DNA of 32,000 nucleotides from Planctomycetales bacterium (GCA_022646745.1 CP060262.1:1020001-1052000), one strand, 5' to 3'. Numbered from the stretch's first letter, positions 10,263-26,065 are shown. Translations and numbers: made by a program. The notes: a model not told the origin generated them from the sequence alone.

Positions 10263-10517
10263 TGTCTCGTTTTACCGGATGGATGAGACAATGTGGTTTC
10301 ACATCTGCATAGCTCAGTACAGTAAATCCTGACTTTGCCCCATGATTCAATTTTGATTGTTTGTGGACGTAAACTTGCCTGAGTCTTCAAAGAGTGCTAA
10401 AGTTATCGCCTGTTATGGGGCATTTTGTACGGTGGGTACATTGTGCTTCGCTGTTGAAACCGGCCTTTGGGCCGTGCAGGGTTGAGATTTAGAACATCGG
10501 GTGGAATTACACGTCCA

Positions 10518-11132
10518 ATGAGCTTCGTGGAACGCAATGGGAAGAATGCGGGATTGACTCCTGAACAGGAACTTAACCTGTGGGAGAACTACAATTCCCA
10601 CGCACGCGCCCGGATCGTCGAGGCCTACCAGCCGCTGGTCTTCCACATCTTCGGCCGCCTTGGGCTCAACCTCGGCGAAGAGGCTGTGGACCTCATCAGC
10701 GAAGGCAACGTTGGCCTGATCCAGGCGGTGGACAATTACGACTACCGCCGTGGAGTGCCTTTCAAGAGCTACGCCTACCTGCGGGTCAAGGGCGCGATGA
10801 TCGACTACCTGCGCAGCCAGAAGATCGCCGTGAAGGGCGGTGAGCTGCGGGAGTTCGATTTCTTCAGCGCACTGGCCGCCGAGGGCAAGGACAAGTACAG
10901 CATCGACCGGCTGGAGTTCGTGTTCGCGCACCTGCCGGCGCTGTCACCACGTGAATCACAGATCATCAACGGGTTGTACGTCGAAGGACTCAGCCAGCGT
11001 GAGCTGGCCACCCGCCTGAAGTGCACCCCGGCCAACATCAGCATCCTCCACGGCCGCGCCGTGAAGAGGCTGAAGAAGTTCGTCGCCGAGGAGCGCAAGC
11101 GCGGCATGGCCGCGGGCATCGCCTGGTTTTAG
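10518..11132 (+). CDS. Sigma-70 family sigma factor, FliA/WhiG/SigB-like (group 3-like), short
   Basis: Region 2 is YQPLVFHIFGRL...DLISEGNVGLIQAVDNYDYRRGVPFKSYAYLRVKGAMIDYLRSQ. Region 4 is LSPRESQIINGLYVEGLSQRELATRLKCTPANISILHGRAVKRLKKFV. The track ORF starts at TTG 10467; I prefer ATG 10518. Only about 40 aa separate regions 2 and 4. Confidence 0.8.
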   Translation: MSFVERNGKNAGLTPEQELNLWENYNSHARARIVEAYQPLVFHIFGRLGLNLGEEAVDLISEGNVGLIQAVDNYDYRRGVPFKSYAYLRVKGAMIDYLRSQKIAVKGGELREFDFFSALAAEGKDKYSIDRLEFVFAHLPALSPRESQIINGLYVEGLSQRELATRLKCTPANISILHGRAVKRLKKFVAEERKRGMAAGIAWF

Positions 11133-11150
11133 GTTATTCACGTTCGACTC

Positions 11151-11231
11151 AGCACTTCACAGGTGTGGTTCGGACGCCATCAGCAATTATTCACTTGTAC
11201 GGGGCCTCGCTGAGAGGCCCCGTTTTTTTTT
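11151..11231 (+). repeat. Conserved ~80-nt element, copy 1, ending in a hairpin plus T-run
   Basis: agcacttcacaggtgtggttcggacgccatcagcaattattcacttgtac followed by the hairpin. It is near-identical to 16978-17056. It lies between the sigma gene stop (11132, +) and the A1 stop (11230-11232, -). Confidence 0.8.
11201..11231 (+). terminator. Intrinsic terminator (plus-strand polarity); in minus polarity the A-run comes first
   Basis: ggggcctc (11201-11208), loop gctga, gaggcccc (11214-11221), then g and T9 (11223-11231). The T-run overlaps the TAA stop of the convergent gene A1. Confidence 0.7.
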
Positions 11232-14010
11232 ATTCACTTCCGAATGCGTAAAGCACACCCGTCAGGGAGGTGATGTACAGCCGGCCTTCCTTGCTGATTG
11301 CGCATCCGCCCCAGAAATCACCACCGGTGGCAAAAGACCAGACTACGTTCCCATCAGTGTCCAGGGCGAATACAGTTCCATTGTGCCCACCGAAGTAGCA
11401 TGTGCCATTGGCATCAATTGATGGAGACATATCGGTCCCACCCTCACCGGTGAAAACCCATCTCTGCGAGCCATCGGGATTAACGGCATGCAGCCCACTG
11501 CCTGCCGTGCCGATTCCCGGTCCGACGGTGCCGATCAGAATCGTTCCATCTGGTGCGATGGATGGCTTGCATTCATGGATTTCAGCACCAGTGGGGTAGG
11601 ACCAGAGAAAGCTGCCATCCGCTGCCAGGGCCGTCAGCGTGCCAGATCCATCTCCGAAGTAGACCGTGCCGTCAGGGCCAATTGCCGGGCCGGACTGCAG
11701 GTTCGAGCCAGTATCGTAGGACCACTTGCTCTTTCCCTGGGGGGTCCAGGCTGACATGTGGGTTCCGTTCATTTCCGTATAAACCGTTCCGTCTGAGCCA
11801 ATGGCTGGAGAACTGATACCTGGCAGGGAAGGAATTGTGATCGAGTTCTTGCCATCAGGTGTCAGTCCCCGCGTGAAGTTTGCCACTGAGTTGGCGAAGA
11901 TCAGGCCATCACGGGCAACGGCAGGGCTGCCCCAGATCTGGAATCCGATGCTCTTCTGCCAGAGAACGAAGCCACCCTGTGAAACTGCAGTTACGTATCC
12001 GCCGTCATCGCCCACGCAGATGGCACCAGTTCCGCTGATTGACGGGCTGGAATGAATGGCATCAATGCCGATACCTGCCGACCAGTCCAGGTTCCCGTCA
12101 GGCGTCACCGCAACAAGCAATCCGTCCCAGCCACTGACATGGATGTTCCCATCTGCTCCGATGGTCGGAGAACTGTCACACTGTGCACCAGTAGGGAAAG
12201 TCCACAGCAGGTTGTCAGTCTGCGGCCCGGCGTATGGGCTCAGGCCCCTGCGGTCCGGGCCCATGCCCAGTGTGGACCATTCGGAAGGCAATGTGATGTC
12301 GATGCTTGCCGTCGCCTGCCCGCCCTTGTCGTCAGTCACACGCAGAACCGGAGTGAACCAGCCCATGTAGGGGTAGGTGTATGTCACCTGGGTCGATTGC
12401 CCTGACTGCTCGTAGCTGCCGTCGTTGTTGAAGTCCCACTCGTACAGCACGATCTCCCCGTCAGGGTCGAAACTGCCGTCCGCGTAGAACCGGACAACGA
12501 ACGGCGCATAGCCGGTCGTCACGTCTGAGTTCAGCACAGCTGTCGGCAGCTCGTTGGCAGGGTCTGTCCCCGTTACGCCGATCGCAACACTCGCCACTGC
12601 CCAGGCCGCGGAACTGTCCACCACCCGCAGCTTCGGGTTGTAGGTACCAGCCGCACCATACTCAAAGGAAGTCTCATAGCCGCTGGTGTCATCCTCGAAG
12701 AAGCCGTCACCGTCAAAGTCCCAGTAGATCCCCAGCGCTGATGCGTCATCCTCACTGTCCTGGGCCTCACCCGTGAAGTTCACCATCAACGGGGCCACTC
12801 CGCTCTGGGGGTCCGCGGCCAGGCTGACCGCCGGGCGCGTGTTGCCACTGATCAGCAGCGATATGCTGCCAAGCGCCACAGCCGTCCCGTCCGCGGAATG
12901 GCCGCGCACCAGCGGCCGGATGATGCCCGGACCGGGGATCGCCGCGAGCTGGAAGCCCGTTGCGTCGTCAAGCAAATCGAATATGCCGTCTCCATCCAGG
13001 TCCCAGTCGTACAGGTCCGCTCCGCCCGCCGTCAGCCCGATCGAGGCATTCAGGCTTGCGCTCACCGTATCCGTCTCCACGCTCAGGCCCGGCACCACTC
13101 CTTCCTCCACCGTCGCCGTGACCACCTCACTCAGGGGACTGCGGTTGCCGGAGAGGTCCACTGACTGGATCCCAACATGGACAGCACCTGACAGACCATC
13201 CAGCAGGTGGCGCGTACTTCCCTCGAGGTATGGCAACTGCTTCACGCCTGCTGCCTGGGGGTTGATGAAGGGCTTGCTGCCATAGCTGATCACATACCCG
13301 GCCAGGTCCGCCGCCGGTACGGGCAGCCAGCTCAGCTCAACACCTCCATTCACGGCCTGCGCTGCCAGACCCAGCGGCTGCGCCGGTGCCGTCGCGTCCG
13401 CCAGGTCAAGCGTGTTCAGGCCGAGCCCCACCAGGTCCAGCGAACTGCCAGGCTCAACGAGCACCATCACGAATGTGTTGCCCAATGTGCTCGTGAAGTC
13501 ATCCGCGCTGTCGCGCGCCAGCTCCAGCCTGACGTGGCTGTCCTGGAAGGGTCCGTGCCAGGCCCAGCGCTTGCTGCCATAGTCACTGACCCCCACCGAA
13601 TAGCGGGAACCGCTGCCCAGCAGGTTGGCATCAATGCTCAGCACCGCTGGCTGCTCGGCCTGCAGGCTGACCCGGTACATCACCCAGGCCGGCACTGAAT
13701 CACCATTCAGCCTCGCCGCCTCCTGGTTGCCGCTCACATCCCCGCCGCTGCTGAAATACTCCACACCGGGAATGAACTCTGTCCCATCGTTCAGCGACGA
13801 TCCACTGCGCAGCAGCTCCACCGCATACCCTGCGTCGTCAAGCTCCTCCCAGGGTTGCAGCCGGTCGGAGGGGAATTCAGGCAAACCTGCTTCCACCACC
13901 GGTTTGTTCGAGCTTGGGTCCGCATCTGTCCCTGCGATCTTTCCTGAACAGGAACCAAGCGATAAGACCATGATTGCCAGGAGCAATCCGGAGTGGATGC
14001 TTCTACTCAT
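11230..14010 (-). CDS. Modular surface lipoprotein A1: conserved stalk plus PQQ-like propeller
   Basis: The track ORF is 11230..14076. I prefer ATG 14010 (AGGGTGA upstream), giving MSRSIHSGLLLAIMVLSLGSCSG with a lipobox. Then come FPSDRLQPWEELD and an unrecognised domain (SIDANLLGSGSRYSVGVSDYGSKRWAWHGPFQDSHVRLE). An FN3-like segment (VNGGVELSWLPVPAADLAGYVISY) and three PKD-like segments (YDWDLDGDG, YWDFDGDG, YEWDFNNDG) follow. The C-terminal ~330 aa carry PQQ/BamB-like repeats (SSPTIGADGNIHVS, SGPAIGPDGTVYFGD). Confidence 0.85.
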   Translation of the reverse strand: MSRSIHSGLLLAIMVLSLGSCSGKIAGTDADPSSNKPVVEAGLPEFPSDRLQPWEELDDAGYAVELLRSGSSLNDGTEFIPGVEYFSSGGDVSGNQEAARLNGDSVPAWVMYRVSLQAEQPAVLSIDANLLGSGSRYSVGVSDYGSKRWAWHGPFQDSHVRLELARDSADDFTSTLGNTFVMVLVEPGSSLDLVGLGLNTLDLADATAPAQPLGLAAQAVNGGVELSWLPVPAADLAGYVISYGSKPFINPQAAGVKQLPYLEGSTRHLLDGLSGAVHVGIQSVDLSGNRSPLSEVVTATVEEGVVPGLSVETDTVSASLNASIGLTAGGADLYDWDLDGDGIFDLLDDATGFQLAAIPGPGIIRPLVRGHSADGTAVALGSISLLISGNTRPAVSLAADPQSGVAPLMVNFTGEAQDSEDDASALGIYWDFDGDGFFEDDTSGYETSFEYGAAGTYNPKLRVVDSSAAWAVASVAIGVTGTDPANELPTAVLNSDVTTGYAPFVVRFYADGSFDPDGEIVLYEWDFNNDGSYEQSGQSTQVTYTYPYMGWFTPVLRVTDDKGGQATASIDITLPSEWSTLGMGPDRRGLSPYAGPQTDNLLWTFPTGAQCDSSPTIGADGNIHVSGWDGLLVAVTPDGNLDWSAGIGIDAIHSSPSISGTGAICVGDDGGYVTAVSQGGFVLWQKSIGFQIWGSPAVARDGLIFANSVANFTRGLTPDGKNSITIPSLPGISSPAIGSDGTVYTEMNGTHMSAWTPQGKSKWSYDTGSNLQSGPAIGPDGTVYFGDGSGTLTALAADGSFLWSYPTGAEIHECKPSIAPDGTILIGTVGPGIGTAGSGLHAVNPDGSQRWVFTGEGGTDMSPSIDANGTCYFGGHNGTVFALDTDGNVVWSFATGGDFWGGCAISKEGRLYITSLTGVLYAFGSE
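12201..13875. repeat. Near-identical direct repeat, A1 copy (partner 15023-16697, offset 2822)
   Basis: Several shadow ORFs in the track are identical at offset 2822 (12573..12770 vs 15395..15592; 12773..13285 vs 15595..16107). Only a handful of substitutions are visible by eye. Both ends of the repeat lie inside the CDS. Confidence 0.9.
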
Positions 14011-14075
14011 ATTTATCACCCTATGTATTGAAATGACAACCGGGTATCCCGGAGTGGATATCAGTAACTGCCGCA

Positions 14076-16844
14076 TCAGTCACCAAATGCGTAGACAACT
14101 CCGTTGTTGCCGCAAATATACAGGCGGCCATCGGAACTGATTGCCGGTGATCCGGAGAAATCAGTGCCAGCATCATACGACCATGCTTCAGTCCCATCGG
14201 GATTAAGGGCATACACAAATCCCGCGTGGTCCGCAAAATACACCATTCCATCCGCTGCAATTGCCGGGGAGCTGTCTATGGCGCCGTTGGCGGAATAGCT
14301 CCATTTTGCATTTCCGTCCAGATCGACACAGTGGAGTTCACCACCAACCGTGCCCACACAGATGCTCAGGTCAGGGCCGATAGAAGGTTTGCTCTCACGG
14401 ATGTCGCTGCCACAGAAGTAGTTCCAGAGGAAATTCCCATCAAAGGACAGCGCTGTCAGCCAGTCGCTGTCATCCCCGAAGTACACTGTGCCATCAGGCC
14501 CGATTGCCGGGCTGCATGCTATCAGGGCCGCTGAATCGTAGGACCACAGGAGCACACCATTTGGGGAGTAGGATTCAATCTTCTGGTTGAGCGATTCCAG
14601 CACAAGGTTGCCATCACGGTCAATTGCCACGGATGTTGCTCCACCCTGGGTTGGCTCAAACATGCGGATGCTGCCTTCGCTTGAGACCCCTGTCACGTTG
14701 CCATTGATTGCATTGACATACACCGTCCCATCCCTGCCTATTGCCGGCGAGCCCCATACACTAAGGAACACTGAGGCTGTCCAGTATTCGGCACCATTTG
14801 CAGTCAATGCATACAGGAGTCCATTATCGGTGCCGACATAGACATTTCCTTCCGGGCCAATGGTTGGAGTACTGTGCAGATTCGTGCCTGAGGCGTAGGT
14901 CAGCCAGTCCTGCGTCCCTTCCGGTGTCAAGGCCAGTACGTATCCGTCATGACGACTGACATATATCCTTCCATCGGCACCTATTGAAGGCGAGGAATCA
15001 ACCACGGACAAGGTCGGAAAGCTCCACAGCAGGTTGCTCGTCTGCGGCCCGGCGTATGGGCTCAGGCCCCTGCGGTCCGGACCCATGCCGTATGTTGACC
15101 ATTCGGAAGGCAGCGTGATGTCAATGTATGCCGTCGCCTGCCCGCCCTTGTCGTCAGTCACACGCAGAACCGGAGTGAACCAGCCCATGTAGGGGTAGGT
15201 GTATGTCACCTGGGTCGATTGCCCTGACTGCTCGTAGCTGCCGTCGTTGTTGAAGTCCCACTCGTACAGCACGATCTCCCCGTCAGGGTCGAAACTGCCG
15301 TCCGCGTAGAACCGGACAACGAACGGCGCATAGCCGGTCGTCACGTCTGAGTTCAGCACAGCTGTCGGCAGCTCGTTGGCAGGGTCTGTCCCCGTTACGC
15401 CGATCGCAACACTCGCCACTGCCCAGGCCGCGGAACTGTCCACCACCCGCAGCTTCGGGTTGTAGGTACCAGCCGCACCATACTCAAAGGAAGTCTCATA
15501 GCCGCTGGTGTCATCCTCGAAGAAGCCGTCACCGTCAAAGTCCCAGTAGATCCCCAGCGCTGATGCGTCATCCTCACTGTCCTGGGCCTCACCCGTGAAG
15601 TTCACCATCAACGGGGCCACTCCGCTCTGGGGGTCCGCGGCCAGGCTGACCGCCGGGCGCGTGTTGCCACTGATCAGCAGCGATATGCTGCCAAGCGCCA
15701 CAGCCGTCCCGTCCGCGGAATGGCCGCGCACCAGCGGCCGGATGATGCCCGGACCGGGGATCGCCGCGAGCTGGAAGCCCGTTGCGTCGTCAAGCAAATC
15801 GAATATGCCGTCTCCATCCAGGTCCCAGTCGTACAGGTCCGCTCCGCCCGCCGTCAGCCCGATCGAGGCATTCAGGCTTGCGCTCACCGTATCCGTCTCC
15901 ACGCTCAGGCCCGGCACCACTCCTTCCTCCACCGTCGCCGTGACCACCTCACTCAGGGGACTGCGGTTGCCGGAGAGGTCCACTGACTGGATCCCCACAT
16001 GGACTGCACCGGACAGACCATCCAGCAGGTGGCGCGTACTTCCCTCGAGGTATGGCAACTGCTTCACGCCAGCTGCCTGGGGGTTGATGAAGGGCTTGCT
16101 GCCATAGCTGATCACATACCCGGCCAGGTCCGCCGCCGGTACGGGCAGCCAGCTCAGCTCAACACCTCCATTCACGGCCTGCGCTGCCAGACCCAGCGGC
16201 TGCGCCGGTGCCGTCGCGTCCGCCAGGTCAAGCGTGTTCAGGCCGAGCCCCACCAGGTCCAGCGAACTGCCAGGCTCAACGAGCACCATCACGAATGTGT
16301 TGCCCAATGTGCTCGTGAAGTCATCCGCGCTGTCGCGCGCCAGCTCCAGCCTGACGTGGCTGTCCTGGAAGGGTCCGTGCCAGGCCCAGCGCTTGCTGCC
16401 ATAGTCACTGACCCCCACCGAATAGCGGGAACCGCTGCCCAGCAGGTTGGCATCAATGCTCAGCACCGCCGGCTGCTCGGACTGCAGGCTGACCCGGTAC
16501 ATCACCCAGGCCGGCACTGAATCACCATTCAGCCTCGCCGCCTCCTGGTTGCTGCTCACATCCCCGCCGCTGCTGAAATACTGCACACCGGGAATGAACT
16601 CCGTAGCTTCATTCAGCGACGATCCACTGCGCAGCAGCTCCACCGCATGCCCTGCGTCGTCAAGCTCCTCCCAGGGTTGCAGCCGGTCGGAGGGGAGTGT
16701 CGAGACTGGCCCTTGTTGGGCTTCAAATGCAGACGCGTCCACGCCCGCGAACCCGTTTGGAGCAGACCCTTTCAATCCGCTGCTGCAGGAAACCACCAAC
16801 ATCCCACTCGTTAGCAGGACCAGGAGATACACCACAACTTTCAT
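14076..16844 (-). CDS. Modular surface lipoprotein A2: same stalk as A1, diverged PQQ-like propeller
   Basis: The track ORF starts at TTG 16856; I prefer ATG 16844, giving MKVVVYLLVLLTSGMLVVSCSSG with a lipobox. Residues from LPSDRLQPWEELD to ...DITLPSEWST are almost identical to A1. The C-terminal propeller matches A1 at only about half of positions by eye. Confidence 0.85.
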   Translation of the reverse strand: MKVVVYLLVLLTSGMLVVSCSSGLKGSAPNGFAGVDASAFEAQQGPVSTLPSDRLQPWEELDDAGHAVELLRSGSSLNEATEFIPGVQYFSSGGDVSSNQEAARLNGDSVPAWVMYRVSLQSEQPAVLSIDANLLGSGSRYSVGVSDYGSKRWAWHGPFQDSHVRLELARDSADDFTSTLGNTFVMVLVEPGSSLDLVGLGLNTLDLADATAPAQPLGLAAQAVNGGVELSWLPVPAADLAGYVISYGSKPFINPQAAGVKQLPYLEGSTRHLLDGLSGAVHVGIQSVDLSGNRSPLSEVVTATVEEGVVPGLSVETDTVSASLNASIGLTAGGADLYDWDLDGDGIFDLLDDATGFQLAAIPGPGIIRPLVRGHSADGTAVALGSISLLISGNTRPAVSLAADPQSGVAPLMVNFTGEAQDSEDDASALGIYWDFDGDGFFEDDTSGYETSFEYGAAGTYNPKLRVVDSSAAWAVASVAIGVTGTDPANELPTAVLNSDVTTGYAPFVVRFYADGSFDPDGEIVLYEWDFNNDGSYEQSGQSTQVTYTYPYMGWFTPVLRVTDDKGGQATAYIDITLPSEWSTYGMGPDRRGLSPYAGPQTSNLLWSFPTLSVVDSSPSIGADGRIYVSRHDGYVLALTPEGTQDWLTYASGTNLHSTPTIGPEGNVYVGTDNGLLYALTANGAEYWTASVFLSVWGSPAIGRDGTVYVNAINGNVTGVSSEGSIRMFEPTQGGATSVAIDRDGNLVLESLNQKIESYSPNGVLLWSYDSAALIACSPAIGPDGTVYFGDDSDWLTALSFDGNFLWNYFCGSDIRESKPSIGPDLSICVGTVGGELHCVDLDGNAKWSYSANGAIDSSPAIAADGMVYFADHAGFVYALNPDGTEAWSYDAGTDFSGSPAISSDGRLYICGNNGVVYAFGD
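15023..16697. repeat. Near-identical direct repeat, A2 copy (partner 12201-13875)
   Basis: See the A1 copy. Identity decays at ...ccacagcaggttg (low end) and at ccggtcggagggga (high end). Confidence 0.9.
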
Positions 16845-16890
16845 GGCAAACCCCAAGCTTGAAGTGAGTTTGATTTTAAGCCCAACTCAT

Positions 16891-16899
16891 CTGATTCCA
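16891..16899 (-). promoter_or_regulatory. TGGAATCAG motif (variant of TAGAATCAG), candidate -10 element upstream of A2
   Basis: The plus strand reads ctgattcca. On the minus strand TGGAAT ends 38 nt (TTG 16856) or 50 nt (ATG 16844) upstream of the start. Confidence 0.25.
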
Positions 16900-16977
16900 G
16901 CACCGTGCTGGGAGAAATTCCCCAAGCTCATGTGTAGGGTGCCTGAATTGGCCGGCACACTGTCCAGGGACTCATCG

Positions 16978-17056
16978 AGCACTTCACAGGTGTGGTTCGG
17001 ACGCCATTAGCAATTATTCACTTGTACGGGGCCCCGCTGAGGGACCCCGTTTTTTT
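16978..17056 (+). repeat. Conserved ~80-nt element, copy 2
   Basis: agcacttcacaggtgtggttcggacgccattagcaattattcacttgtac followed by the hairpin. It lies immediately after the B1 stop (17055-17057), with no plus-strand gene upstream. Confidence 0.8.
17028..17056 (+). terminator. Hairpin plus T7 (terminator-like), copy 2
   Basis: ggggcccc (17028-17035), loop gctga, gggacccc (17041-17048), then g and T7 (17050-17056). Relative to copy 1, one stem pair changed T-A to C-G (compensatory) and one C-A mismatch appeared. Confidence 0.6.
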
Positions 17057-19919
17057 AGCGAATTTCAACGGCATATTTGCAGCTGAACTGCTCCCTGAAA
17101 ACAAAAGCCAGGTGACCATTGATGACTGCAGCGGAAAGCGCCGCAGGATTCTGGAAAGCGATCTCCGGGGAACTGCCATTTCCCCAGACTGTTGGATGGT
17201 TACCCGAAGGAGTTGCAGACTCCAATACCACCAACTGGCTTGCTTCATCATCCAGATACCCGATTGCCGGCATGCCATCCAGTTCCACCAGGGTGGGATA
17301 GAATCCCACACGATGTTCCGGACTGCCATCGAGTTTCATGAAGTTGAAGTCGTAGTAGATCTCGGGATCATCCTTTACTGCCCTCCCGTAGAATAGGGAC
17401 CCGTCGATCAGCTCAACAAAGGCAATACTCGCCTTGCCATTGATTTCCCTCAAGGAGCAGTTGTAGCCATACTTCAATCCGGGTTCGGAAAAATAGAGAA
17501 CATTGTCATTCCAATCCGTCTGAGTTGTCCCGTCCGCAGTGTCACTGTAGGCAAACCTGAGCTCATCTGCATCGAAGTCATAGTAGGCAATCGCAGGCTT
17601 GCCGGAAATCTCAGCAAGCGAACTTTCGGTAATGCCTGCTGTGACGACTACAACCGGCTCTGACCAGTCACCGGGATTCATACCATTGCTGGTACTGCTG
17701 CGGCTGTAACGCAGTTCATCCAGTAAGGGTTCCTCATATGCAATTGCCGGGTTGCCGTTGATAATGGCAAGCGAAGGATTCTCGCCAGTATCATCCTCAA
17801 AATCAACTGTTACGAATGACCAGTCATTGAAGCTGAGTCCTTCCACGGTGGAACTGCGCGCATACTTCAGGTCCTGGGGATCCAGATGCCTGTATGCGAT
17901 TGCCGGTGTGCCATCCACCTCCTGCAGGCCTTCGCGGGATCCAACGAAATCGCCCTGGGTCTCCAGTTCTATGACAGTCCAGGGCGCAACCATCCCGAGT
18001 GGGTCTGCTGGCCTGGCAAACTTCAGGTGATATGGAGCAATGGAATTGAAGCTGACTGCAGGCTTGCCACCGACCAGGGCCAGGTTTGGGTTGCCACCGG
18101 TCTGGTTTCCTGCATTCCCTTCCTCAATTGTGACAACCTCCCAGCCTGTAACCGTGTACTCCATCTGCCAAGTGGCAGTGCCACCTTTGCTGTCAGATAC
18201 TCGCAGACCGATGTCGTAATATCCGGGATCAGGGATGTTGAATTCGTACAGGGGGTCCGTACCGTTGTTAGTTTCGAACGTCCCGTCCCCGTCCAGGTCC
18301 CATTCATACTGCGTGATCGTTGCCCCGAATGCGGCACGAGATCCGGAGGCATCCAGGCTGACATCCGTGCTGTAGTAGCCTTTCGGCGGGTCGGTATTGA
18401 ATTCAGCATCCGGCGCGCTGAAATCTTCTCCCATCGGCAGCACCGGTACGCTGGCAACACTCCATGCACCCTGGGAGTCCTGGGCCCGGAAGCGGGCGTT
18501 GAACAGGCCGGGGATGAGGTATGTGAAAGGATCGGGGCTGGCGGTGTCCGTATCCGGTTCGAAGATGCCATCGCCATTGAAGTCCCATGCGTAGGCCAGC
18601 TCAGCACCGTCCTCCGCATCCTCGGCGGTGCCGGCAAATGTCACATCAAGCGGAGTGCTGCCGCTCTGCGGACTGGCAACCGCTGTAACATAGGGCGCAC
18701 TGTTGCCACTGACAAGCAGGCTCAGCCCGCCAAGCGCCACGGCCTCGCCGGATGCATCAATGGCCCGTACACGGGGACGGATGATACCCGTGGCGGAAGT
18801 GTCAGCAGTCTGGCTGCCGCTGCTGTCATTCTCAACTTCAAACACGCCGTCGCCGTCCAGGTCCCAGTCATAACTGTCGGCTCCGCTGGCAGTCAACTGG
18901 ATCACATCATTGATCGAACCGCCGGGAGCGCTGCCCGTCAGCAACAGTGCCGGAGCATCACCAGCCAGAGGGCCGGCATCCATCACCGCAGTCGCTGCGC
19001 TTTCATTTCCGGAGAAGTCAACGGCGCTGATCGCAACCCATGTGCGATCCGACAGGCCGCTGAGCAGGTGCCGGCTGCTGCCCTCTAGGTAAGCGAGCCG
19101 CTGCACACCGGCTGAGTGCACTGAGATGAATGAGCGACTGGCGTAGTAGACCGCGTAGCCTGCCAGGTCAGCCTCCAGCACGGGCGACCATTCCAGCTCA
19201 ATTCCGCCTGCCACCGGGCTGAGAGCCAGCCCGGCAGGTGCTGACGGGGCCTGGGCATCCGCGATCTCATACTGGTTGACACCGACGCCAACCACATCGA
19301 CTCTGCTGCCGGTATTTACAAGCACCGTGATGAAGGCATTGCCAAGTGTGGAAGTCAGGTCGCCGCCTGCTTCGGGCAGGGCTTCAATCCGTACGTGGTT
19401 GTCGCTGAACGGCCCATGCCAGTCCCAGCGAGCATGTCCGTAATCGGAGATTCCGACGAAGTACTCGCTGCCGCTGCCCAGCAGGTTGGCATCGACGCTG
19501 ACGATGCCGGGCTGCTCATCCTGCAGGCTGACCCGGTACATCGCATAGCTCGTGCCAGAGTCATCCGTGCCGTTCAGGCGGCTGGCTTCACCGTTGGCAG
19601 CCACGTCACCGCTTTCGAGGAAGCGCTGGATGCCTGGCGTGAAGTCCGTGTTGCCATTGATTGAGGAGGAAATCCTGTAAGGCTCAGGCTGCACATGGCC
19701 ACTGGCATCCAGCTGCTCCCAGGGCTGAATGCCGTCCGCGGGCAGCCCAGAAGGGAACCCCGAACCTTCCCCTCCGGCAAGCAATGTATCCTGGGAATGC
19801 AAGTCCTCAACAGGACCGGACTTTGGATTCCCCAGCCGGTCCTGTTCAACGCTTGACGAACAGGCGGAAACTGCCAGCAACAGAGCTGCGATGCAGCCCG
19901 TAATCAGTATGCGTGCCAT
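17055..19919 (-). CDS. Modular surface lipoprotein B1: conserved stalk plus NPAIAY-type propeller
   Basis: The signal peptide is MARILITGCIAALLLAVSACSS (lipobox), followed by LPADGIQPWEQLD. The shared domain reads SVDANLLGSGSEYFVGISDYGHARWDWHGPFSDNHVRIE. FN3-like and three PKD-like segments follow. The C-terminal ~360 aa carry repeats such as GTPAIAYRHLDPQDLKYARSS, GNPAIAYEEPLLDELRYSRSS and GKPAIAYYDFDADELRFAYSD. Confidence 0.85.
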   Translation of the reverse strand: MARILITGCIAALLLAVSACSSSVEQDRLGNPKSGPVEDLHSQDTLLAGGEGSGFPSGLPADGIQPWEQLDASGHVQPEPYRISSSINGNTDFTPGIQRFLESGDVAANGEASRLNGTDDSGTSYAMYRVSLQDEQPGIVSVDANLLGSGSEYFVGISDYGHARWDWHGPFSDNHVRIEALPEAGGDLTSTLGNAFITVLVNTGSRVDVVGVGVNQYEIADAQAPSAPAGLALSPVAGGIELEWSPVLEADLAGYAVYYASRSFISVHSAGVQRLAYLEGSSRHLLSGLSDRTWVAISAVDFSGNESAATAVMDAGPLAGDAPALLLTGSAPGGSINDVIQLTASGADSYDWDLDGDGVFEVENDSSGSQTADTSATGIIRPRVRAIDASGEAVALGGLSLLVSGNSAPYVTAVASPQSGSTPLDVTFAGTAEDAEDGAELAYAWDFNGDGIFEPDTDTASPDPFTYLIPGLFNARFRAQDSQGAWSVASVPVLPMGEDFSAPDAEFNTDPPKGYYSTDVSLDASGSRAAFGATITQYEWDLDGDGTFETNNGTDPLYEFNIPDPGYYDIGLRVSDSKGGTATWQMEYTVTGWEVVTIEEGNAGNQTGGNPNLALVGGKPAVSFNSIAPYHLKFARPADPLGMVAPWTVIELETQGDFVGSREGLQEVDGTPAIAYRHLDPQDLKYARSSTVEGLSFNDWSFVTVDFEDDTGENPSLAIINGNPAIAYEEPLLDELRYSRSSTSNGMNPGDWSEPVVVVTAGITESSLAEISGKPAIAYYDFDADELRFAYSDTADGTTQTDWNDNVLYFSEPGLKYGYNCSLREINGKASIAFVELIDGSLFYGRAVKDDPEIYYDFNFMKLDGSPEHRVGFYPTLVELDGMPAIGYLDDEASQLVVLESATPSGNHPTVWGNGSSPEIAFQNPAALSAAVINGHLAFVFREQFSCKYAVEIR

Positions 19920-19960
19920 GCTGTGCCTTCCTTTACAGTCAGGCTGATTCTAGCAGAGCC
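18737..19960. repeat. Near-identical direct repeat, B1 copy (partner 21595-22815)
   Basis: The repeat covers the first ~395 codons plus 41 nt of 5' leader. The offset is 2858 at the low end and 2855 at the high end because a 45/42-nt replaced patch lies inside it. Confidence 0.9.
19944..19952 (-). promoter_or_regulatory. TAGAATCAG motif, candidate -10 element upstream of B1
   Basis: The plus strand reads ctgattcta. On the minus strand TAGAAT ends 28 nt upstream of ATG 19919, and AAGGAAGG (SD-like) lies between them. Confidence 0.35.
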
Positions 19961-19987
19961 CAGCCTGCATCGGATTTCAAATGTAAC

Positions 19988-22774
19988 TCATGGAAGGTAA
20001 TTCATGAATCCCAGCGAGGCTGACTCAGACGTCATGCACATCAGGGGACTGCCATTCAGGACTGTGAGATCGGGCCATGTTGTCACTTTATCGGGAAGCA
20101 ACAACAGCGCCGGATCCCACTGCTGGCCGGCGGGATCCTGGGAGCGCATGTAGCTCAGCTTGTATCCGGGTGCATTGAAGAGGATCGCCGGGTTTCCATG
20201 CACCAGCTCGAGGCTGGGAGGCGAATTCGTGGCAATGATCTCCGCGAGATCCTGAGGCTCGCCCCAGCTGCTGCCGTCTGCAGCCAGGGCGCGGACGTAC
20301 AGCAGCCTGTCCTCAATGTTGTTAATGTAGACGACCGCAGGCATGCCATTGACGATCTGCATGTCCGCCCACGTGCCCGTGTTGGCCGTATCATCAACAG
20401 TCAGCAGCGCATCCCAGGCCAAACCGGTGGCATCCTGTGCCCTACTGAAGACCAGGTGGTCATTTGTAGTGTCCATGCAGGCGATGGCCGGCCGGCCTTC
20501 GACGACCTGCATGGAGGCGTATGCGGCCTGGATGCCGTCATCGATAATCTGTGGCGTGCTCCAGCTGGTGCCGGTAGCATCAGAGGCCCTGATGTAGCGC
20601 AGCCGCGCGCTGCCGTTGCTGTAGGCAATGGCCGGATTGCCATCCACAATGATCATGTCATTGCCGGAACCTGCGTTTGCGGAATCAAGCAGCTGAGTGC
20701 TGGACCAGGCCGTTCCGTTGGAATCCAGGCTCCTCATATAGCGCAGTTCGTTGTCAATCAGCACCAGGAAGCAGATGGCCGGGTTTCCGTTAACGATAAC
20801 CAGCTTGGGGAAGAACGGCGGGTTGGCAACCGTTGCGATGAGCTGCGGAGAGCCCCAGTTGCTGGCCTGAGGATCCACTGCCCGTACATAGCGGACGGTG
20901 TTGTCACTCAGGTCGGAATACGAAATGGCGGGATTGCCATTGACAATCGCAATGCTGGGGAACTGGCCAGTTGCCGCGGTGCTGTCGTCCACTATGCGCA
21001 GAGGCGACCAGCCGCGCACGACAAGCTGGGCACTGTCCAGCGCGAAAGCACCGCTTTCATCGGTGACACGCAGCCCCAGGGAAAAGTAGCCACGCTCCGC
21101 CATGGACATCGTGAACTGCGGAATTCCTGCGGTGGCAGTCTCGAAACTGCCATCCCCGTCAGTATCCCATTCATACAGCACAATGTTCCCGTCCGAACTG
21201 CTGGATGCCGCGTTCAAGGTGAACAATTCACCGGTGGTGACACTGTTGGGGTTGATTTCCAGCACGGCAACCGGGCCCGCTGCTTCGCTGACCAGCACTG
21301 GCACTGTGTCGGCATCCCAGGCACCCTGGGAATCTTCTACCCGGAATTTCACGCCATAGAGGCCGGGGGTTGTGTAATTCTGAACGGCAGGGCTGAGTGT
21401 GTCGGTGTCATCCTCGAAAATACCATCCCCGTCAAAGTCCCATGCGTAGGAAAGTTCAGAAGACTCATCCTCACTGTCCTCCGCAGTTCCCGTGAAGGTC
21501 ACGTCCAGCGGGGCCGGTCCGGACTGCGGATCTGCTACAGCGCTGGCAACTGGACGCGAGTTGCCTGTGATGATCAGCGACAGGCCACCTAGGGCCACGG
21601 CCTCGCCGGAGGCATCACGGGCCCGAACACGAGGACGGATGATGCCGGTGGCGGAAGTGTCAGCAATCTGGCTGCCGCTATTGTCATTCTCAACTTCAAA
21701 CACTCCGTCGCCGTCCAGGTCCCAGTCATAGCTGTCCGCTCCGCTGGCAGTCAACTGGATCACATCATTGATCGAACCGCCGGGAGCGCTGCCCGTCAGC
21801 AACAGTGCTGGAGCATCACCAGCCAGAGGGCTGGCATCCATCACCGCAGTCGCTGCGCTTTCATTTCCGGAGAAGTCAACGGCGCTGATCGCAATCCATG
21901 TGCGCTCCGACAGGCCGCTGAGCAGGTGCCGGCTGCTGCCCTCGAGGTAAGCGAGCCGCTGCACACCGGCTGAGTGCACTGAGATGAATGAGCGACTGGC
22001 ATAGTAGACCGCATAGCCTGCCAGGTCAGCCTCCAGCACGGGCGACCATTCCAGCTCAATTCCGCCTGCCACCGAGCTGAGAGCCAGCCCGGCAGGTGCT
22101 GACGGGGCCTGGGCATCCGCGATCTCATACTGGTTGACACCGACGCCAACCACATCGACTCTGCTGCCGGTATTTACAAGCACCGTGATGAAGGCATTGC
22201 CAAGTGTGGAAGTCAGGTCGCCGCCTGCTTCGGGCAGGGCTTCAATCCGTACGTGGCTGTCGCTGAACGGCCCATGCCAGTCCCAGCGAGCATGTCCGTA
22301 ATCGGAGATTCCGACGAAGTACTCGCTGCCGCTGCCCAGCAGGTTGGCATCGACGCTGACGATGCCGGGCTGCTCATCCTGCAGGCTGACCCGGTACATC
22401 GCATAGCTCGTGCCCGAGTCATCCGTGCCGTTCAGGCGGCTGGCTTCACCGTTGGCAGCCACGTCACCGCTTTCGAGGAAGCGCTGGATACCTGGCGTGA
22501 AGTCGGTGTTGCCATTGATGGACGCGGCACTGCGATCAGCAGGCACAATGAAGCCCTGCGCATCCAGCTGCTCCCAGGGCTGCAGGCCGTCCGCGGGCAG
22601 CCCGGAAGGGAACCCCGAACCTTCCCCTCCGGCAAGCAATGTATCCTGGGAATGCAAGTCCTCAACAGGACCGGACTTTGGATTCCCCAGCCGGTCCTGT
22701 TCAACGCTTGACGAACAGGCGGAAACTGCCAGCAACAGAGCTGCGATGCAGCCCGTAATCAGTATGCGTGCCAT
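19988..22774 (-). CDS. Modular surface lipoprotein B2: B1-identical N-terminus, distinct PKD region, 7-blade NPAIAY-type propeller
   Basis: The first ~395 aa are almost identical to B1. Seven blades are readable: IAIVNGNPAISY, LVIVNGNPAICF, MIIVDGNPAIAY, MQVVEGRPAIAC, MQIVNGMPAVVY, LELVHGNPAILF and LTVLNGSPLMCM. Each is followed by L-x-Y-x-R and ...G-x-x-W. Confidence 0.85.
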   Translation of the reverse strand: MARILITGCIAALLLAVSACSSSVEQDRLGNPKSGPVEDLHSQDTLLAGGEGSGFPSGLPADGLQPWEQLDAQGFIVPADRSAASINGNTDFTPGIQRFLESGDVAANGEASRLNGTDDSGTSYAMYRVSLQDEQPGIVSVDANLLGSGSEYFVGISDYGHARWDWHGPFSDSHVRIEALPEAGGDLTSTLGNAFITVLVNTGSRVDVVGVGVNQYEIADAQAPSAPAGLALSSVAGGIELEWSPVLEADLAGYAVYYASRSFISVHSAGVQRLAYLEGSSRHLLSGLSERTWIAISAVDFSGNESAATAVMDASPLAGDAPALLLTGSAPGGSINDVIQLTASGADSYDWDLDGDGVFEVENDNSGSQIADTSATGIIRPRVRARDASGEAVALGGLSLIITGNSRPVASAVADPQSGPAPLDVTFTGTAEDSEDESSELSYAWDFDGDGIFEDDTDTLSPAVQNYTTPGLYGVKFRVEDSQGAWDADTVPVLVSEAAGPVAVLEINPNSVTTGELFTLNAASSSSDGNIVLYEWDTDGDGSFETATAGIPQFTMSMAERGYFSLGLRVTDESGAFALDSAQLVVRGWSPLRIVDDSTAATGQFPSIAIVNGNPAISYSDLSDNTVRYVRAVDPQASNWGSPQLIATVANPPFFPKLVIVNGNPAICFLVLIDNELRYMRSLDSNGTAWSSTQLLDSANAGSGNDMIIVDGNPAIAYSNGSARLRYIRASDATGTSWSTPQIIDDGIQAAYASMQVVEGRPAIACMDTTNDHLVFSRAQDATGLAWDALLTVDDTANTGTWADMQIVNGMPAVVYINNIEDRLLYVRALAADGSSWGEPQDLAEIIATNSPPSLELVHGNPAILFNAPGYKLSYMRSQDPAGQQWDPALLLLPDKVTTWPDLTVLNGSPLMCMTSESASLGFMNYLP

Positions 22775-22815
22775 GCTGTGCCTTCCTTTACAGTCAGGCT
22801 GATTCTAGCAGAGCC
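21595..22815. repeat. Near-identical direct repeat, B2 copy (partner 18737-19960)
   Basis: See the B1 copy. Identity runs through the start codon into the leader and stops after tagcagagcc (22806-22815). Confidence 0.9.
22799..22807 (-). promoter_or_regulatory. TAGAATCAG motif, candidate -10 element upstream of B2
   Basis: Same sequence and spacing as upstream of B1. A TTGGCC hexamer lies 17 nt upstream of TAGAAT on the minus strand. Confidence 0.35.
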
Positions 22816-22841
22816 TGGCAGCCGGGCCAAGCCGGTGCTGA

Positions 22842-25634
22842 TCAGTACTGGATCGCGAAGCGGATGTCACTGTTCGGGTTATCGTAGTAGGCAATTGCCA
22901 GGCGGCCGCCCAGGTGGATCACGCAGACTCCATCACCGACATCGGGATCCCCGTCCACCAGGAAGGGCTCAGCCCAGCCCGTGCCGAGTGGCCCATCCGC
23001 CACCGACAGCATCATCCCGGCTGTCGTGTTGTCATGGTGGAAGATATGCGGAATGCCGTTGTGGATCAGCATGTTCGCCGAGTAGCCCGCCAGGCTGGCC
23101 GTGGCCACGGGCAGCGGGTCTGCCCAGCTCTGCCCATCCGCATCATTGGCACGCACGAACATCAGGTCCGCCCCGGTGTTCAGCTGGTAGCCGATTGCCG
23201 GAGCTCCCTGCACCACTGCCAAGGTTGTGTAGTAGCCAGTATTCGAAGTTGTGGTGATGATCACGCGCGTTCCCCAGCTGCTGCCGGCAGCGTCAGTGGC
23301 GCGGACGTAGGCCAGGTCCTGCCCATTGAACAGGTTGTAGCTGATCGCCGGGTTCCCGTTGACGATTGCCATTGAACAGAAGTTGCCGGGAATATCCTGG
23401 GTGTCAACGTCAACGGGCGTATCCCAGCTGGAGGCTGTCGCATCAGCCGCCCGGATGTAGCGCAGCTTTGCGTTGGCGCTGTCCCTGTATGCAAAGGCCG
23501 GGTTGCCGGCCACCTGCAGTGCATCCACGTAGAAGGTGCTGCCGCTGGTGGGGTCGATCGTCGTGGGCGAACCCCAGCTGCCTCCTGTTTCGTCACTGGC
23601 ATGGATGAACTTCAGCCCGGGAGCGCCCGTGCCGCTGAAGCCGAGCGCCGGCCGGCCATCCACCATCAGCGCGCTGCGCTTGCCACGTGTATAGCTGTTG
23701 ATTGACAGCAGGGTGCTGGCCGGCCACTGGCTGCCCTGCGGGTTGCTTGCCCTGACATACAGCAGGTCGTCAGTATCGTTGTCATAGTAGAACAGCGCCG
23801 GGCTGCCATGCACGTCCAGCAGCACGATGTCATTCACCGGTTCCACCGGCAGTTCCAGCGCAGTGATGCGCCAGCCCGTTACGGCCACCTCCAGTCCGGC
23901 GGTGCCGGTATGGCCGTCTGCATCCGTCACCCTCACGCCAACCGGATAGCTGCCGGGTTCGCTCCACCACAGGCTGATCAGCGGCTGGCCCTCCAGTGCA
24001 GCCTCACCGTTGCCAGCCTCACTGAAGATGCCGTCGCCATCCAGATCCCATTCGTAATTCGTGATACCGCCACCGGCATCCGTGGATGCCGATGCATCAA
24101 AGCTGACCGGCACATTCTTCTCCACGCGCATACTGCTGGCTGACAATGCCGCCGTCGGCCAGCCGCCGAGCCCCTCACCGACACTGATCGCCACGCTGTC
24201 AACGTCCCAGGCCCCCTCGCTGTCTGTCACACGGAACTTCGCGTTCCAGGTGCCATCGACGATGTAGTCAGTCGCCGGGGGCTGCAGCAGGTCAGTGTTG
24301 TCCTCATAGATGCCGTCGCCATTGAAATCCCAGGCGAACTCCAGCGCGGACAGGTCATCCTCAAGGTCCTCAGCGGTGCCCGTGAACTGCACGCTGAGCG
24401 GGGCCGGGCCACTCTGCGGATCGGCCACGGCGCTGGCCACCGGGCGGTTGTTGCCGATGATCAGCAGCGAAACCGAGCCGAGCGCGACAGCCTCACCGAG
24501 CGCATCCCGTCCGCGGACCGCCGGCCGGATCACGCCGGATGCCCCGGTGTAGGCCTGCTGGCTGCCTGACGCATCATCCGTCAGCTCGAACACTCCGTCG
24601 CCATCAAGGTCCCAGTCATACAGGTCCGCTCCGCTGGCAACGAGTCCGGCGGCCTGGTTGAGCTTGCCGCTGACCATGTCCGTCGCCAGCATCAGCTGGC
24701 CGGGGCTGCCTGCCAGCGGCAATGCATTCAGCACGGCCGTCGGGTCACTTTCGTTGCCACCGAAGTCCAGTGCGCTGACCGCAATGTAGGTCCGCGCGGA
24801 CAGGCCACTGAGGATATGCCGCGGTGCACCTTCCAGCTGCCTGACACGCTTGACACCAGCTGCATGCGGATTGCTGAAGGGCTGGCCGGAGTGGTAGACG
24901 ATGTAGCCCGCGATGTCATTGGCCGGCACCGGGTTCCAGGCCAACTCAATCCCGCCATTCACCGGAGTCAGGGCAAGGCCACTGGGACTGGAGGGCTTGA
25001 TTGCGTCCGCCGGGTCGTACTGATTCACACCGACGCCGACGATGTCCAGGCTGTTGCCGGCCTCCGCCAGCACCGTGACGAAAGTGTTGCCGAATTCACT
25101 CGTGTAGTTTCCGTTGCCATCCGTCAGCACCGGCAGGCGGATCCGCCCGTCACTGAATGGACCGTTCCATTCCCAGCGCACGCCGCCATAGTTGCTCACG
25201 CCGACGTAGTAGCGGCTCTTTGGCCCAAGCAGGTTGGCATCGATGCTGACGATGCCCGGCTGCTGGTCCTGCAGGCTGATGCGGTAGATCGCGTAGGCGA
25301 TGTCATTGGTGCTCGTTGCATTGAGGCGCAGTGCCTCTCCGTTGGGGACAGCGTCTCCGGCGGAGAGGAAGAGTTCCACTCCCGGCGTGAAGATCGTGTT
25401 TGCCGTGATCGAGGATGATCCGCGACCGCTGGGCAGCACATGTCCCTGCCCGTCGAGTGCCTCCCAGGGTTGCACACCGTCTGCCGGCAGGGCCAGCTTG
25501 GCGTCTGGTAACTCCTGTTCCACATCAAACCCTGCGGCACCAGCCAGCTGCACGCCAGCCCTGTCTGCAGTTCCACCGCAGGCAGAAATAAATATGAGCA
25601 GCGCCAGTATTGCCAGCGAGCCGGGTAGTCTCAT
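22842..25634 (-). CDS. Modular surface lipoprotein C: divergent family member with NPAIAY-type propeller
   Basis: The signal peptide is MRLPGSLAILALLIFISACGG (lipobox), followed by LPADGVQPWEALD. The shared domain reads SIDANLLGPKSRYYVGVSNYGGVRWEWNGPFSDGRIRL. FN3-like and three PKD-like segments follow. The C-terminal blades include GSPALFYYD, GRPALGFSG, GNPAFAYRD, GNPAISYNL, GAPAIGYQL and GRLAIAYYD. Confidence 0.85.
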   Translation of the reverse strand: MRLPGSLAILALLIFISACGGTADRAGVQLAGAAGFDVEQELPDAKLALPADGVQPWEALDGQGHVLPSGRGSSSITANTIFTPGVELFLSAGDAVPNGEALRLNATSTNDIAYAIYRISLQDQQPGIVSIDANLLGPKSRYYVGVSNYGGVRWEWNGPFSDGRIRLPVLTDGNGNYTSEFGNTFVTVLAEAGNSLDIVGVGVNQYDPADAIKPSSPSGLALTPVNGGIELAWNPVPANDIAGYIVYHSGQPFSNPHAAGVKRVRQLEGAPRHILSGLSARTYIAVSALDFGGNESDPTAVLNALPLAGSPGQLMLATDMVSGKLNQAAGLVASGADLYDWDLDGDGVFELTDDASGSQQAYTGASGVIRPAVRGRDALGEAVALGSVSLLIIGNNRPVASAVADPQSGPAPLSVQFTGTAEDLEDDLSALEFAWDFNGDGIYEDNTDLLQPPATDYIVDGTWNAKFRVTDSEGAWDVDSVAISVGEGLGGWPTAALSASSMRVEKNVPVSFDASASTDAGGGITNYEWDLDGDGIFSEAGNGEAALEGQPLISLWWSEPGSYPVGVRVTDADGHTGTAGLEVAVTGWRITALELPVEPVNDIVLLDVHGSPALFYYDNDTDDLLYVRASNPQGSQWPASTLLSINSYTRGKRSALMVDGRPALGFSGTGAPGLKFIHASDETGGSWGSPTTIDPTSGSTFYVDALQVAGNPAFAYRDSANAKLRYIRAADATASSWDTPVDVDTQDIPGNFCSMAIVNGNPAISYNLFNGQDLAYVRATDAAGSSWGTRVIITTTSNTGYYTTLAVVQGAPAIGYQLNTGADLMFVRANDADGQSWADPLPVATASLAGYSANMLIHNGIPHIFHHDNTTAGMMLSVADGPLGTGWAEPFLVDGDPDVGDGVCVIHLGGRLAIAYYDNPNSDIRFAIQY

Positions 25635-25662
25635 GGAAGTACCCCTGTAAGTATTGCTGGCA

Positions 25663-25671
25663 CTGATTCTA
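25663..25671 (-). promoter_or_regulatory. TAGAATCAG motif, candidate -10 element upstream of C
   Basis: The plus strand reads ctgattcta. TAGAAT ends 32 nt upstream of ATG 25634. Confidence 0.35.
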
Positions 25672-25703
25672 TCAGGATTTAACCCTGTGGGGCAGGGACA
25701 CTT

Positions 25704-26018
25704 TCAGGCGGTGACCCGGAATGTCACCCAGATCTCGCTGATCTTGCCGTCGCGCATGCGGATGAATTCCCCGACCTTGATGTCACCCACGCCGTAGGCC
25801 ACGTATGCGGTATTGCCACCGTAGGCCTCCTGCACGGGCTCAAAGCTGTTGAATCCGGCGGCGTATTCCCAGCAGCAGTCCAGGAAGGCATCCGCCCCGT
25901 CGAAGTCATGCATCGGGCTGCGGAACACAAGGTCATCCGCCAGCCGCGCGCGGGCCCCGGCCCGGTCATTGCCGACCCAGCAGCCATAGTATTCGCTGAT
26001 CAACTGCCTGATTTCCAA
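25704..26018 (-). CDS. NTF2/SnoaL-like small protein
   Basis: 104 aa: (M)EIRQLISEYYGCWVGNDRAGARARLADDLVFRSPMHDFDGADAFLDCCWEYAAG...GKISEIWVTF. This is the typical SnoaL-like cone-fold pattern. The start is TTG with GGGAGGA 5 nt upstream. Confidence 0.65.
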   Translation of the reverse strand: MEIRQLISEYYGCWVGNDRAGARARLADDLVFRSPMHDFDGADAFLDCCWEYAAGFNSFEPVQEAYGGNTAYVAYGVGDIKVGEFIRMRDGKISEIWVTFRVTA

Positions 26019-26065
26019 TGTTGTCCTCCCGGCTGCCCGGCGGGCCAGCGCATCGACTAGGATAG

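Follow-up and report, generated by a model that had tools for sequence, protein, structure and literature searches.

A tandem array of modular lipoproteins with two kinds of beta-propeller head, stalk gene conversion and strain-level turnover in a Planctomycetales-labeled genome

The window analyzed here is a 32,000-nucleotide (nt) stretch of a Planctomycetales bacterium genome (GCA_022646745.1, CP060262.1:1020001-1052000; 62% G+C). It contains five tandem minus-strand genes (A1, A2, B1, B2 and C; Table 1) that putatively encode lipoproteins built on one plan: a lipid anchor, an N-terminal domain (N-domain), a stalk of FN3-like and PKD-like modules, and a C-terminal propeller head of one of two types. 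A preliminary description made from this DNA alone had listed five consecutive genes 65-210 nt apart, and all five open reading frames (ORFs) were found at its coordinates, intact and full length, with products of 922-954 aa and spacers of 65 (A1-A2), 210 (A2-B1), 68 (B1-B2) and 67 nt (B2-C). The shared architecture that it proposed (lipobox, LPxDxxQPWExLD motif, ~170-aa domain, PKD-like modules and two head types) was likewise recovered in ORFs, alignments, Pfam searches and AlphaFold2 (AF2) models. Deposited annotations call A2 a "PQQ-binding-like beta-propeller repeat protein" and B2 a "hypothetical protein."

Table 1. Positions of the array genes, recombination-related tracts and neighboring features in the window.
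Feature	Position (nt)	Strand	Description	Basis
A1	11230-14010	-	926 aa; lipobox, N-domain, FN3-like fold, 3 PKD-like modules, 8-bladed PQQ/BamB-like propeller	ORF; Pfam PKD_4 and PQQ_2 above cut-off; N-domain hidden Markov model (HMM) E=2e-145
A2	14076-16844	-	922 aa; A1-type architecture, PQQ-type head	ORF; Pfam; identical to UNM09246.1/MCB1220873.1
B1	17055-19919	-	954 aa; family stalk and 7-bladed NPA-type (Asp-box-like) propeller	ORF; Pfam; head HMM
B2	19988-22774	-	928 aa; family stalk and 7-bladed NPA-type propeller	ORF; Pfam; AF2; Foldseek; identical to UNM09248.1
C	22842-25634	-	930 aa; family stalk and 7-bladed NPA-type propeller	ORF; Pfam; head HMM; AF2 model of N-domain and FN3
A1/A2 conversion tract, A1 side	12306-13761	-	Gene nt ~250-1705; A2 counterpart ~15128-16583	7 mismatches in ~1455 nt
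B1/B2 conversion tract, B1 side	18820-19964	-	From 45 nt 5' of the start codon to gene nt ~1100; B2 counterpart ~21675-22819	
Tract shared with L020/L103/L104	~21590-26390		MscS gene 5' end, SnoaL-like gene (25704-26018), C, 5' part of B2	100.0% identity
79-nt segment with sigma-gene hairpin terminator	11151-11229		Copy after A1	
Second 79-nt terminator-bearing copy	16978-17056		Directly downstream of B1	95% identical
FliA/WhiG-like sigma-70 family factor	10467-11132	+	Convergent with A1	Pfam Sigma70_r2/r4; NCBIfam
Lp6	3385-5544	+	Lipobox, divergent N-domain, one PKD, TIGR03790-family C-terminal domain; distant family member	hhalign probability 96.4%
Lp7	7709-9988	+	759-aa lipoprotein; PQQ-like propeller repeats only, apparently two propellers, without stalk	

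Each signal peptide ends in a lipobox (LGSC in A1, VVSC in A2, VSAC in B1 and B2, ISAC in C) that fits the [LVI][ASTVIG][GAS]C pattern of signal peptidase II substrates. An alignment of 82 family members keeps the full order of domains and shows at least 90% conservation of the Cys; lipobox and conserved Cys together suggest that the array proteins are lipidated. After the Cys, a low-complexity tether leads to LPxDxxQPWExLD and then to the conserved ~170-aa N-domain, which the preliminary description could place in no family and which, like the motif, had no match in Pfam, NCBIfam or Protein Data Bank (PDB) sequences, even at E<=5-10. The AF2 model of C residues 42-330 (pLDDT 93.4) is a beta-sandwich of about 11 strands followed by an FN3-like domain. 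Foldseek with this model returned FN3 tandems and GH144/GH85 accessory domains as weak two-domain matches (template modeling (TM) score <0.33), leaving the sandwich without a family. Pfam gave no match to the FN3-like module at E<=5, and thus no membership in PF00041; the module, also proposed earlier, is supported by its predicted fold. Of the three PKD-like modules described, two per protein score well above the cut-off in all five proteins (PKD_4, 47-70 bits against 27; PF18911/PF00801). The first, undetected by Pfam at E<=5, is recognized (E~1e-6) by an HMM that was derived from modules 2 and 3, and the DNA motif encoding WDxDGDG occurs 13 times at ~282-nt spacing.

The two head types had been called unrelated, and profile searches agree: PQQ_2 (PF13360; cut-off 27.6 bits) matches A1 at 67.8 and A2 at 83.9 bits, and HMMs made from NPA-type and from PQQ-type heads did not match each other. 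Eight blades of SPxIGxDGxxY type can be counted in the A-type heads. No Pfam model rises above threshold in the heads of B1, B2 and C, whose blade consensus, G-NPAI-Y ... L-Y-R-A-x-D-A-x-G-x-x-W, may hold, in our reading, an Asp-box-like hairpin with one extra residue. The seven blades read earlier in B2 recur in its AF2 model, a seven-bladed propeller with ~48-aa blades (pLDDT 94.8, pTM 0.93). An NPA-type profile matched more than 370 proteins in other lineages, almost all unannotated, and several of the Bacteroidota proteins among them carry type IX secretion system (T9SS) sorting domains (PF18962). Judged by these matches, the seven-bladed head is not peculiar to the array system. The novelty claimed for the composition therefore stands in part: searches found no characterized family that fits the whole architecture, but the seven-bladed head belongs to a widespread unannotated family.

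The stalk had been described as constant, which holds only locally. Across the A, B and C types, stalks are 50-56% identical and heads 25-34%; near-identity is limited to two pairs, extending over the whole stalk in A1/A2 and over the first ~1.1 kb in B1/B2. The A1 and A2 proteins share 98.5% of stalk residues and 48% of head residues, and the corresponding DNA tract is 99.5% identical, its longest mismatch-free stretch being 867 nt; identity drops to 40-60% after gene nt ~1705. The B1/B2 tract is 97-100% identical except for a 40-nt variable patch, with ~45% identity after gene nt ~1100. Mismatches are scattered in both (7 and ~30, respectively), and the tracts end at different module boundaries, B1/B2 after the first PKD-like module and A1/A2 after the third. 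Since the identity extends to synonymous sites, protein-level selection is excluded as its cause.

Comparison with orthologs separates the histories of heads and stalks. A1 and its ortholog in the Ww346 genome (L001|2370) are 67% identical in the stalk and 55% in the head, and the B1 head is 45% identical to its best match (L001|2-2218), versus about 30% to B2. The A1 and B1 heads are thus nearer to their orthologs than to their neighbors in the array, while the stalks show the reverse, which shows that the heads are old and the stalks recently homogenized. Stalk constancy in the window is thus mostly the product of recent neighbor-to-neighbor gene conversion, not a fixed design. Stalks of tandem neighbors in other genomes are 46-76% identical. 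At one locus, L003, the stalk of a PQQ-headed gene is 68-72% identical to those of two NPA-headed neighbors, and that of another NPA-headed gene 59%; such stalk similarity does not track head type and points to historical exchange of heads or stalks.

The variable patch of the B1/B2 tract spans ~40 nt (gene nt 216-258; 19662-19704 in B1, 22517-22559 in B2) and encodes the loop right after the QPWEQLD motif. A third conversion donor and selection are both possible causes of its hypervariability.

A 91-kb metagenome scaffold of a close relative (L020/L103), in which the flanking genes are 93.6-96.8% identical to the window in DNA, documents turnover between strains. Its order is C - B2 - X - sigma factor - A' - PQQ lipoprotein. 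The C genes of the two strains do not differ at any of 2793 nt, and B2 differs at 7 of 2787 nt (four synonymous and three nonsynonymous codon differences); these codon differences and the intact ORFs indicate that the array proteins are under constraint. Identity is complete over the tract given in Table 1 and stays at 99.3-99.7% beyond it, down to ~19790. A fully identical tract inside flanks of 93.6-96.8% identity indicates a recent recombinational exchange between strains. Up to about residue 490, X has the stalk of B1 (DNA identity of 74-91% in windows of 300 nt, ~84-98% at the aa level), but its head is unrelated (~30% identity). The scaffold has no counterpart of window positions 11136-18447 (B1 head, A2 and A1), and it carries the PQQ-headed A' between the sigma factor and PQQ lipoprotein genes, where the window has 66 nt. 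Furthermore, a 79-nt terminator-bearing segment is duplicated in the window, and the copies mark the junction of the A2-A1 block with the array.

Two further assemblies bear on these differences. One (L022, GCA_020440665.1) reproduces the order B1(part)-A2-A1-sigma factor at 99.97% identity over 15.4 kb. The other (L104) is identical to L103 over 12,960 nt and joins L020-type flanks to a C gene identical to that of the window. Misassembly of repeats in metagenome-assembled genomes (MAGs) is a very unlikely source of the near-identical stalks and strain differences: kilobase tandem repeats at ~98-100% identity do assemble poorly, the L022 contig breaks off within B1 and those of L104 and L021 at gene boundaries, but the window proteins lie on one 4.11-Mb contig, each of the two arrangements recurs in a second assembly, the tracts are imperfect with ends at differing module boundaries, and unique heads flank every repeat.

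The surroundings of the array are conserved in related genomes, in the order FlhB - CAP - MscS - array - sigma factor - PQQ lipoprotein - flavodoxin, while its membership differs. Before the sigma factor gene, the window has C, B2, B1, A2 and A1, whereas AC1.30 (L004) and HKST-UBA03 (L005) have C-like and B2-like genes, and Ww346 (L001, contig cut upstream) has B1-like and A1-like genes. Beyond the sigma factor gene, HKST-UBA03 and Ww346 have one PQQ-headed member each, and AC1.30 and the window have none. The positional orthologs of C and B2 in AC1.30 and HKST-UBA03 are 67-70% identical in the stalk and 41-53% in the head, so heads evolve faster even in orthologs. At the same time, the stable positional orthologs, of C and B2 in two MAGs and of A1 and B1 in another, make the array an old set of paralogs and not a fast generator of heads. 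The comparison across genomes proposed in the preliminary description thus has a divided outcome: copy number (2-5) and heads do vary, even between ~95%-identical strains, but new heads are not generated fast. A single stable ortholog without head variation, which would have spoken against a diversifying locus, is not what related genomes contain.

On the basis of sequence, the array genes are paralogs within an undescribed family of ~900-aa lipoproteins whose genome matches lie in six MAGs only. An exhaustive profile search with the N-domain over 1.84 billion cluster representatives yielded 424 matches at E<=1e-3, 167 at E<=1e-10 and 100 at E<=1e-30, with the domain at residues ~50-230 of ~830-1400-aa proteins in nearly all. 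The family emerged from this exhaustive search; a word-indexed homolog search with the same domain had returned three fragments only. Scanning a single genome for each GTDB species gave 19 loci, all in the six MAGs: HKST-UBA01 and HKST-UBA03 (both labeled UBP7), AC1.30, "Planctomycetales" Ww346, Zod_Metabat.1143 and MFD04716.bin.2.297. Members number about 12 in AC1.30, 11 in HKST-UBA03 and 7 in Ww346, and tandem runs of 2-4 genes are frequent. A JGI metagenome scan returned no close relatives (best 46% identity) and added nothing on strain turnover.

The head repertoire of the family is wider than that of the array. Among 193 family sequences, 124 carry NPA heads and 38 PQQ heads, the rest being mainly fragments. 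In a few full-length members the C-terminus is of a rarer kind: FGE-sulfatase, nothing but PKD modules, or domains without assignment. Including the TIGR03790-type domain, which sits on a divergent N-domain (as in Lp6), no fewer than five kinds of C-terminal module occur on the N-domain/FN3/PKD stalk (NPA propeller, PQQ propeller, FGE-sulfatase, PKD-only, TIGR03790-type), in keeping with the modularity proposed earlier.

We think it rather likely that the array encodes envelope-tethered ligand-binding proteins, possibly binding glycans, in a recombination hot spot. The evolutionary part of this reading is near-certain, and we hold the functional part with moderate confidence. Chains of Photorhabdus PLL/PHL lectins occupied the top 22 ranks when the B2 head was compared with the PDB by Foldseek (E~1e-14, TM 0.77-0.83, 14-16% identity), and because these lectins bind sugars a binding role is suggested. 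In PLL-family lectins, which are seven-bladed, fucose and O-methylated sugars occupy pockets formed between blades (PMC6943638). In addition, the T9SS sorting domains of Bacteroidota homologs suggest extracellular use of the NPA head.

Several observations weigh against a binding role or temper the evidence for it. An NPA-head profile of 87 sequences found nothing among PDB sequences at E<=1, and the likeness of the B2 model to PLL/PHL is one of fold, not of membership in the lectin family. Seven-bladed propellers often superpose well, and PQQ/BamB-like propellers are generic scaffolds. Neighbors of other family arrays (L002, L007) are housekeeping or unrelated genes, with no consistently linked transporter or secretion genes. 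The proteins could also face the periplasm. Finally, the strain comparison uses metagenome assemblies, possibly from related samples, in which a chimeric contig is an unlikely but residual risk.

In the predicted layout of the array proteins, the lipid on the N-terminal Cys would anchor a short disordered tether leading to the family-specific beta-sandwich, and the FN3-like and three PKD/Ig-like modules would hold the propeller off the membrane. The N-domain would thus be membrane-proximal and the propeller distal, with the conserved membrane-proximal part serving anchoring and presentation. The distal head would bind extracytoplasmic ligands in an adhesin- or lectin-like role; by its modeled fold, the seven-bladed type may bind glycans, and the PQQ type may bind protein or glycan. 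Old duplications gave rise to the array, as orthologs of C, B2, A1 and B1 in other genomes show, and homologous recombination, with similar stalk DNA as homology arms, keeps reshuffling it. Within the genome, conversion has made the stalk DNA of A1 and A2 alike, and likewise that of B1 and B2; in a close strain one gene retains its stalk but bears a different head; whole genes are gained or lost on either side of the sigma factor gene; and a C and B2 tract of ~4.8-6.6 kb was swapped recently between strains. Such a pattern may reflect selection for diversity. Recognition of ligand, prey or host, as proposed in the preliminary description, is something that we still only infer: its modular, variable heads were upheld, but its constant stalk was not.

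Alternatively, the array proteins may be periplasm-facing structural or assembly lipoproteins whose propellers are protein-protein scaffolds, similar to BamB or to LpoA/B-like regulators, whose long linkers bridge the periplasm. This could explain why A1 and A2 match the BamB model TIGR03300 (58-80 bits) as well as PQQ_2, and it would fit both the default location of diderm lipoproteins in the inner leaflet of the outer membrane and the lack of surface-export machinery encoded nearby. However, the BamB scores fall far under the cut-off, and housekeeping envelope factors do not typically occur as 7-12 paralogs per genome, with heads replaced between strains and genes gained and lost. The T9SS signals on NPA-head homologs elsewhere, which point to extracellular use, and a stalk of FN3 and three PKD modules, typical of extracellular proteins, also argue against a periplasmic scaffold, which we consider unlikely. 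BamB orthology of A1 and A2 was rejected separately, given TIGR03300 equivalog scores of 57.9 and 80.5 bits against a cut-off of 285, a length of ~925 aa and the long stalk. As the preliminary description had noted, the array has no sortase, glycosylation or mobile-element genes around it, though housekeeping secG and flagellar flhB are nearby.

The heads could also be catalytic. Propellers of the sialidase/GH33 type or of other propeller glycosidases, or FGE-type domains, would then make the array a tethered polysaccharide-degrading set, with the N-terminal beta-sandwich as a carbohydrate-binding module. In line with this, B2 has a weak BNR_2 match (E=8e-4), one NPA-type head match is named "sialidase family protein," sialidases appear in the Foldseek list for the B2 head from rank 23, the best N-domain matches are glycoside hydrolase (GH) accessory domains of GH144 and GH85, and one family member carries an FGE-sulfatase domain. 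Yet the BNR_2 score of 19 is under its cut-off of 31, the head has seven blades versus six in sialidases and a TM of 0.5-0.6 to them versus 0.8 to non-enzymatic lectins, and Pfam and NCBIfam recognize no GH or other enzyme family in the array proteins. Conserved residues are repeat-structural in every blade (G-NPA-I-Y, L-Y-R, G-x-x-W) with no single active site, and the N-domain matches are weak (TM<0.33), so tethered enzymes seem improbable. As a family assignment, sialidase membership (PF13088, GH33) was rejected: BNR_2 reached 19.2 bits against 31.4, in B2 only, and blade number and TM score also disagree.

A more far-reaching version of the binding hypothesis would make the family a lineage-wide recognition system of UBP7 driven by recombination, the stalk being both scaffold and homology arm, and lectin-like and PQQ-like heads moving within strains and from one strain to another under frequency-dependent selection by phages, prey, partners or host glycans. 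We regard this as a speculative extension with a low chance of being right. If true, the locus would correspond, in bacteria, to polymorphic receptor loci, with an N-terminal domain not described before as its basis.

In design and evolutionary behavior, the closest analogues may be LigA and LigB of Leptospira, lipobox-anchored adhesins with a tandem Ig-like stalk. As in the array, these paralogs share an identical N-terminal part and have divergent C-termini through partial duplication or gene conversion. They belong to another phylum, however, and consist of Big_2 domains without a propeller, whereas the array proteins combine a novel beta-sandwich, FN3, PKD and propellers and have no Pfam match to Big_2. 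Variable surface lipoprotein arrays maintained by gene conversion, such as Mycoplasma vsp/vlp and Borrelia vls, would come second; these, and C-terminal-swapping loci such as the orphan arrays of rhs and contact-dependent inhibition (CDI) systems, are likewise tandem paralogs with conserved 5' and variable 3' parts that recombination moves. The array differs in lacking silent cassettes, invertible promoters, simple-sequence repeats, toxin domains and interleaved immunity genes; its five genes are complete and apparently each independently expressed. Surface glycan-binding proteins of the Bacteroidota SusE/F type resemble the array proteins in their lipid anchor, membrane-near Ig-like spacer and distal binding domains, but the array lies outside a SusC/D-type locus, has no TonB-dependent transporter nearby and uses different domains.

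Resemblances of single parts are narrower. BamB and other PQQ_2 lipoproteins share with A1 and A2 a lipid anchor and an eight-bladed PQQ-like propeller, but BamB has ~390 aa and no stalk. PLL/PHL lectins (PDB 5c9l, 5mxf, 6rg2, 8q83; PMC6943638, PMC12203525) provide the best fold match to the B2 head, with ~48-aa blades and several homologous paralogs per genome, but each is a soluble, stand-alone protein of ~350 aa with neither lipid anchor nor stalk, and HMMs detect no sequence relationship to the B2 head. The array proteins fit these known families at the level of generic domains and no further. The array is of a familiar kind, an expanded, modular and recombining surface-protein family; new are its N-terminal domain, an unmodeled propeller family, the behavior of the stalk as a homology arm and the UBP7 setting.

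Literature searched for UBP7 gave passing mentions only, and the biology of this candidate phylum is almost blank; the family, at roughly 1% of a 4-Mb genome, is among its most expanded gene sets. It comprises the N-domain, absent from Pfam, NCBIfam and PDB, and the widespread seven-bladed propeller, likewise without a model. The locus offers a clear natural example of modular surface-protein evolution, in which stalk DNA is the substrate for conversion, head replacement and exchange between strains. Should the heads prove to be lectins or adhesins, they would be a pointer to attachment targets in activated sludge and sediments and would define two new domain families that merit curation.

Two mechanisms known from other variable loci were considered and rejected. 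Between window positions 9500 and 26500 there are no inverted repeats of at least 30 nt and no tandem or simple repeats, and all gene copies are full length, none being truncated or silent, which rejects a phase- or antigen-variation locus. A polymorphic toxin or orphan C-terminal (orphan-CT) array was rejected because the C-termini are propellers and the 65-210 nt spacers are too small for immunity genes. A scan for sigma-70 promoters did no better than on shuffled sequence. Seen by eye, an extended -10-like motif, TGnTAGAAT(CAG), lies ~40 nt upstream of the start codons of B1, B2 and C, and each array gene probably has its own promoter.

The sigma factor gene adjoins the array in all related genomes examined, where family genes may stand on either side of it. 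Its product is 97% identical in AC1.30 and HKST-UBA03, compared with 63-90% for other neighbors there. The link between sigma factor and array is one of position only. Lp7 is syntenic in L004, L005, L020 and L022. At the start of the window are topA (1-1800, minus strand, running off the window start) and dprA (1861-3024, minus strand); the 379-aa ORF read on the plus strand at 576-1715 is an artefact, antisense to topA.

Two other kinds of protein occur near family members. FG-GAP/ASPIC-repeat proteins are encoded near family arrays in two genomes (30593-31945, plus strand, in the window; 3190-6795 in L002) and may constitute another lineage-enriched envelope or extracellular class. At HKST-UBA03 locus L007 (13239-15836), a family member has as its neighbor a gene for an 865-aa protein that carries a prokaryotic RING-finger domain (Prok-RING_4).

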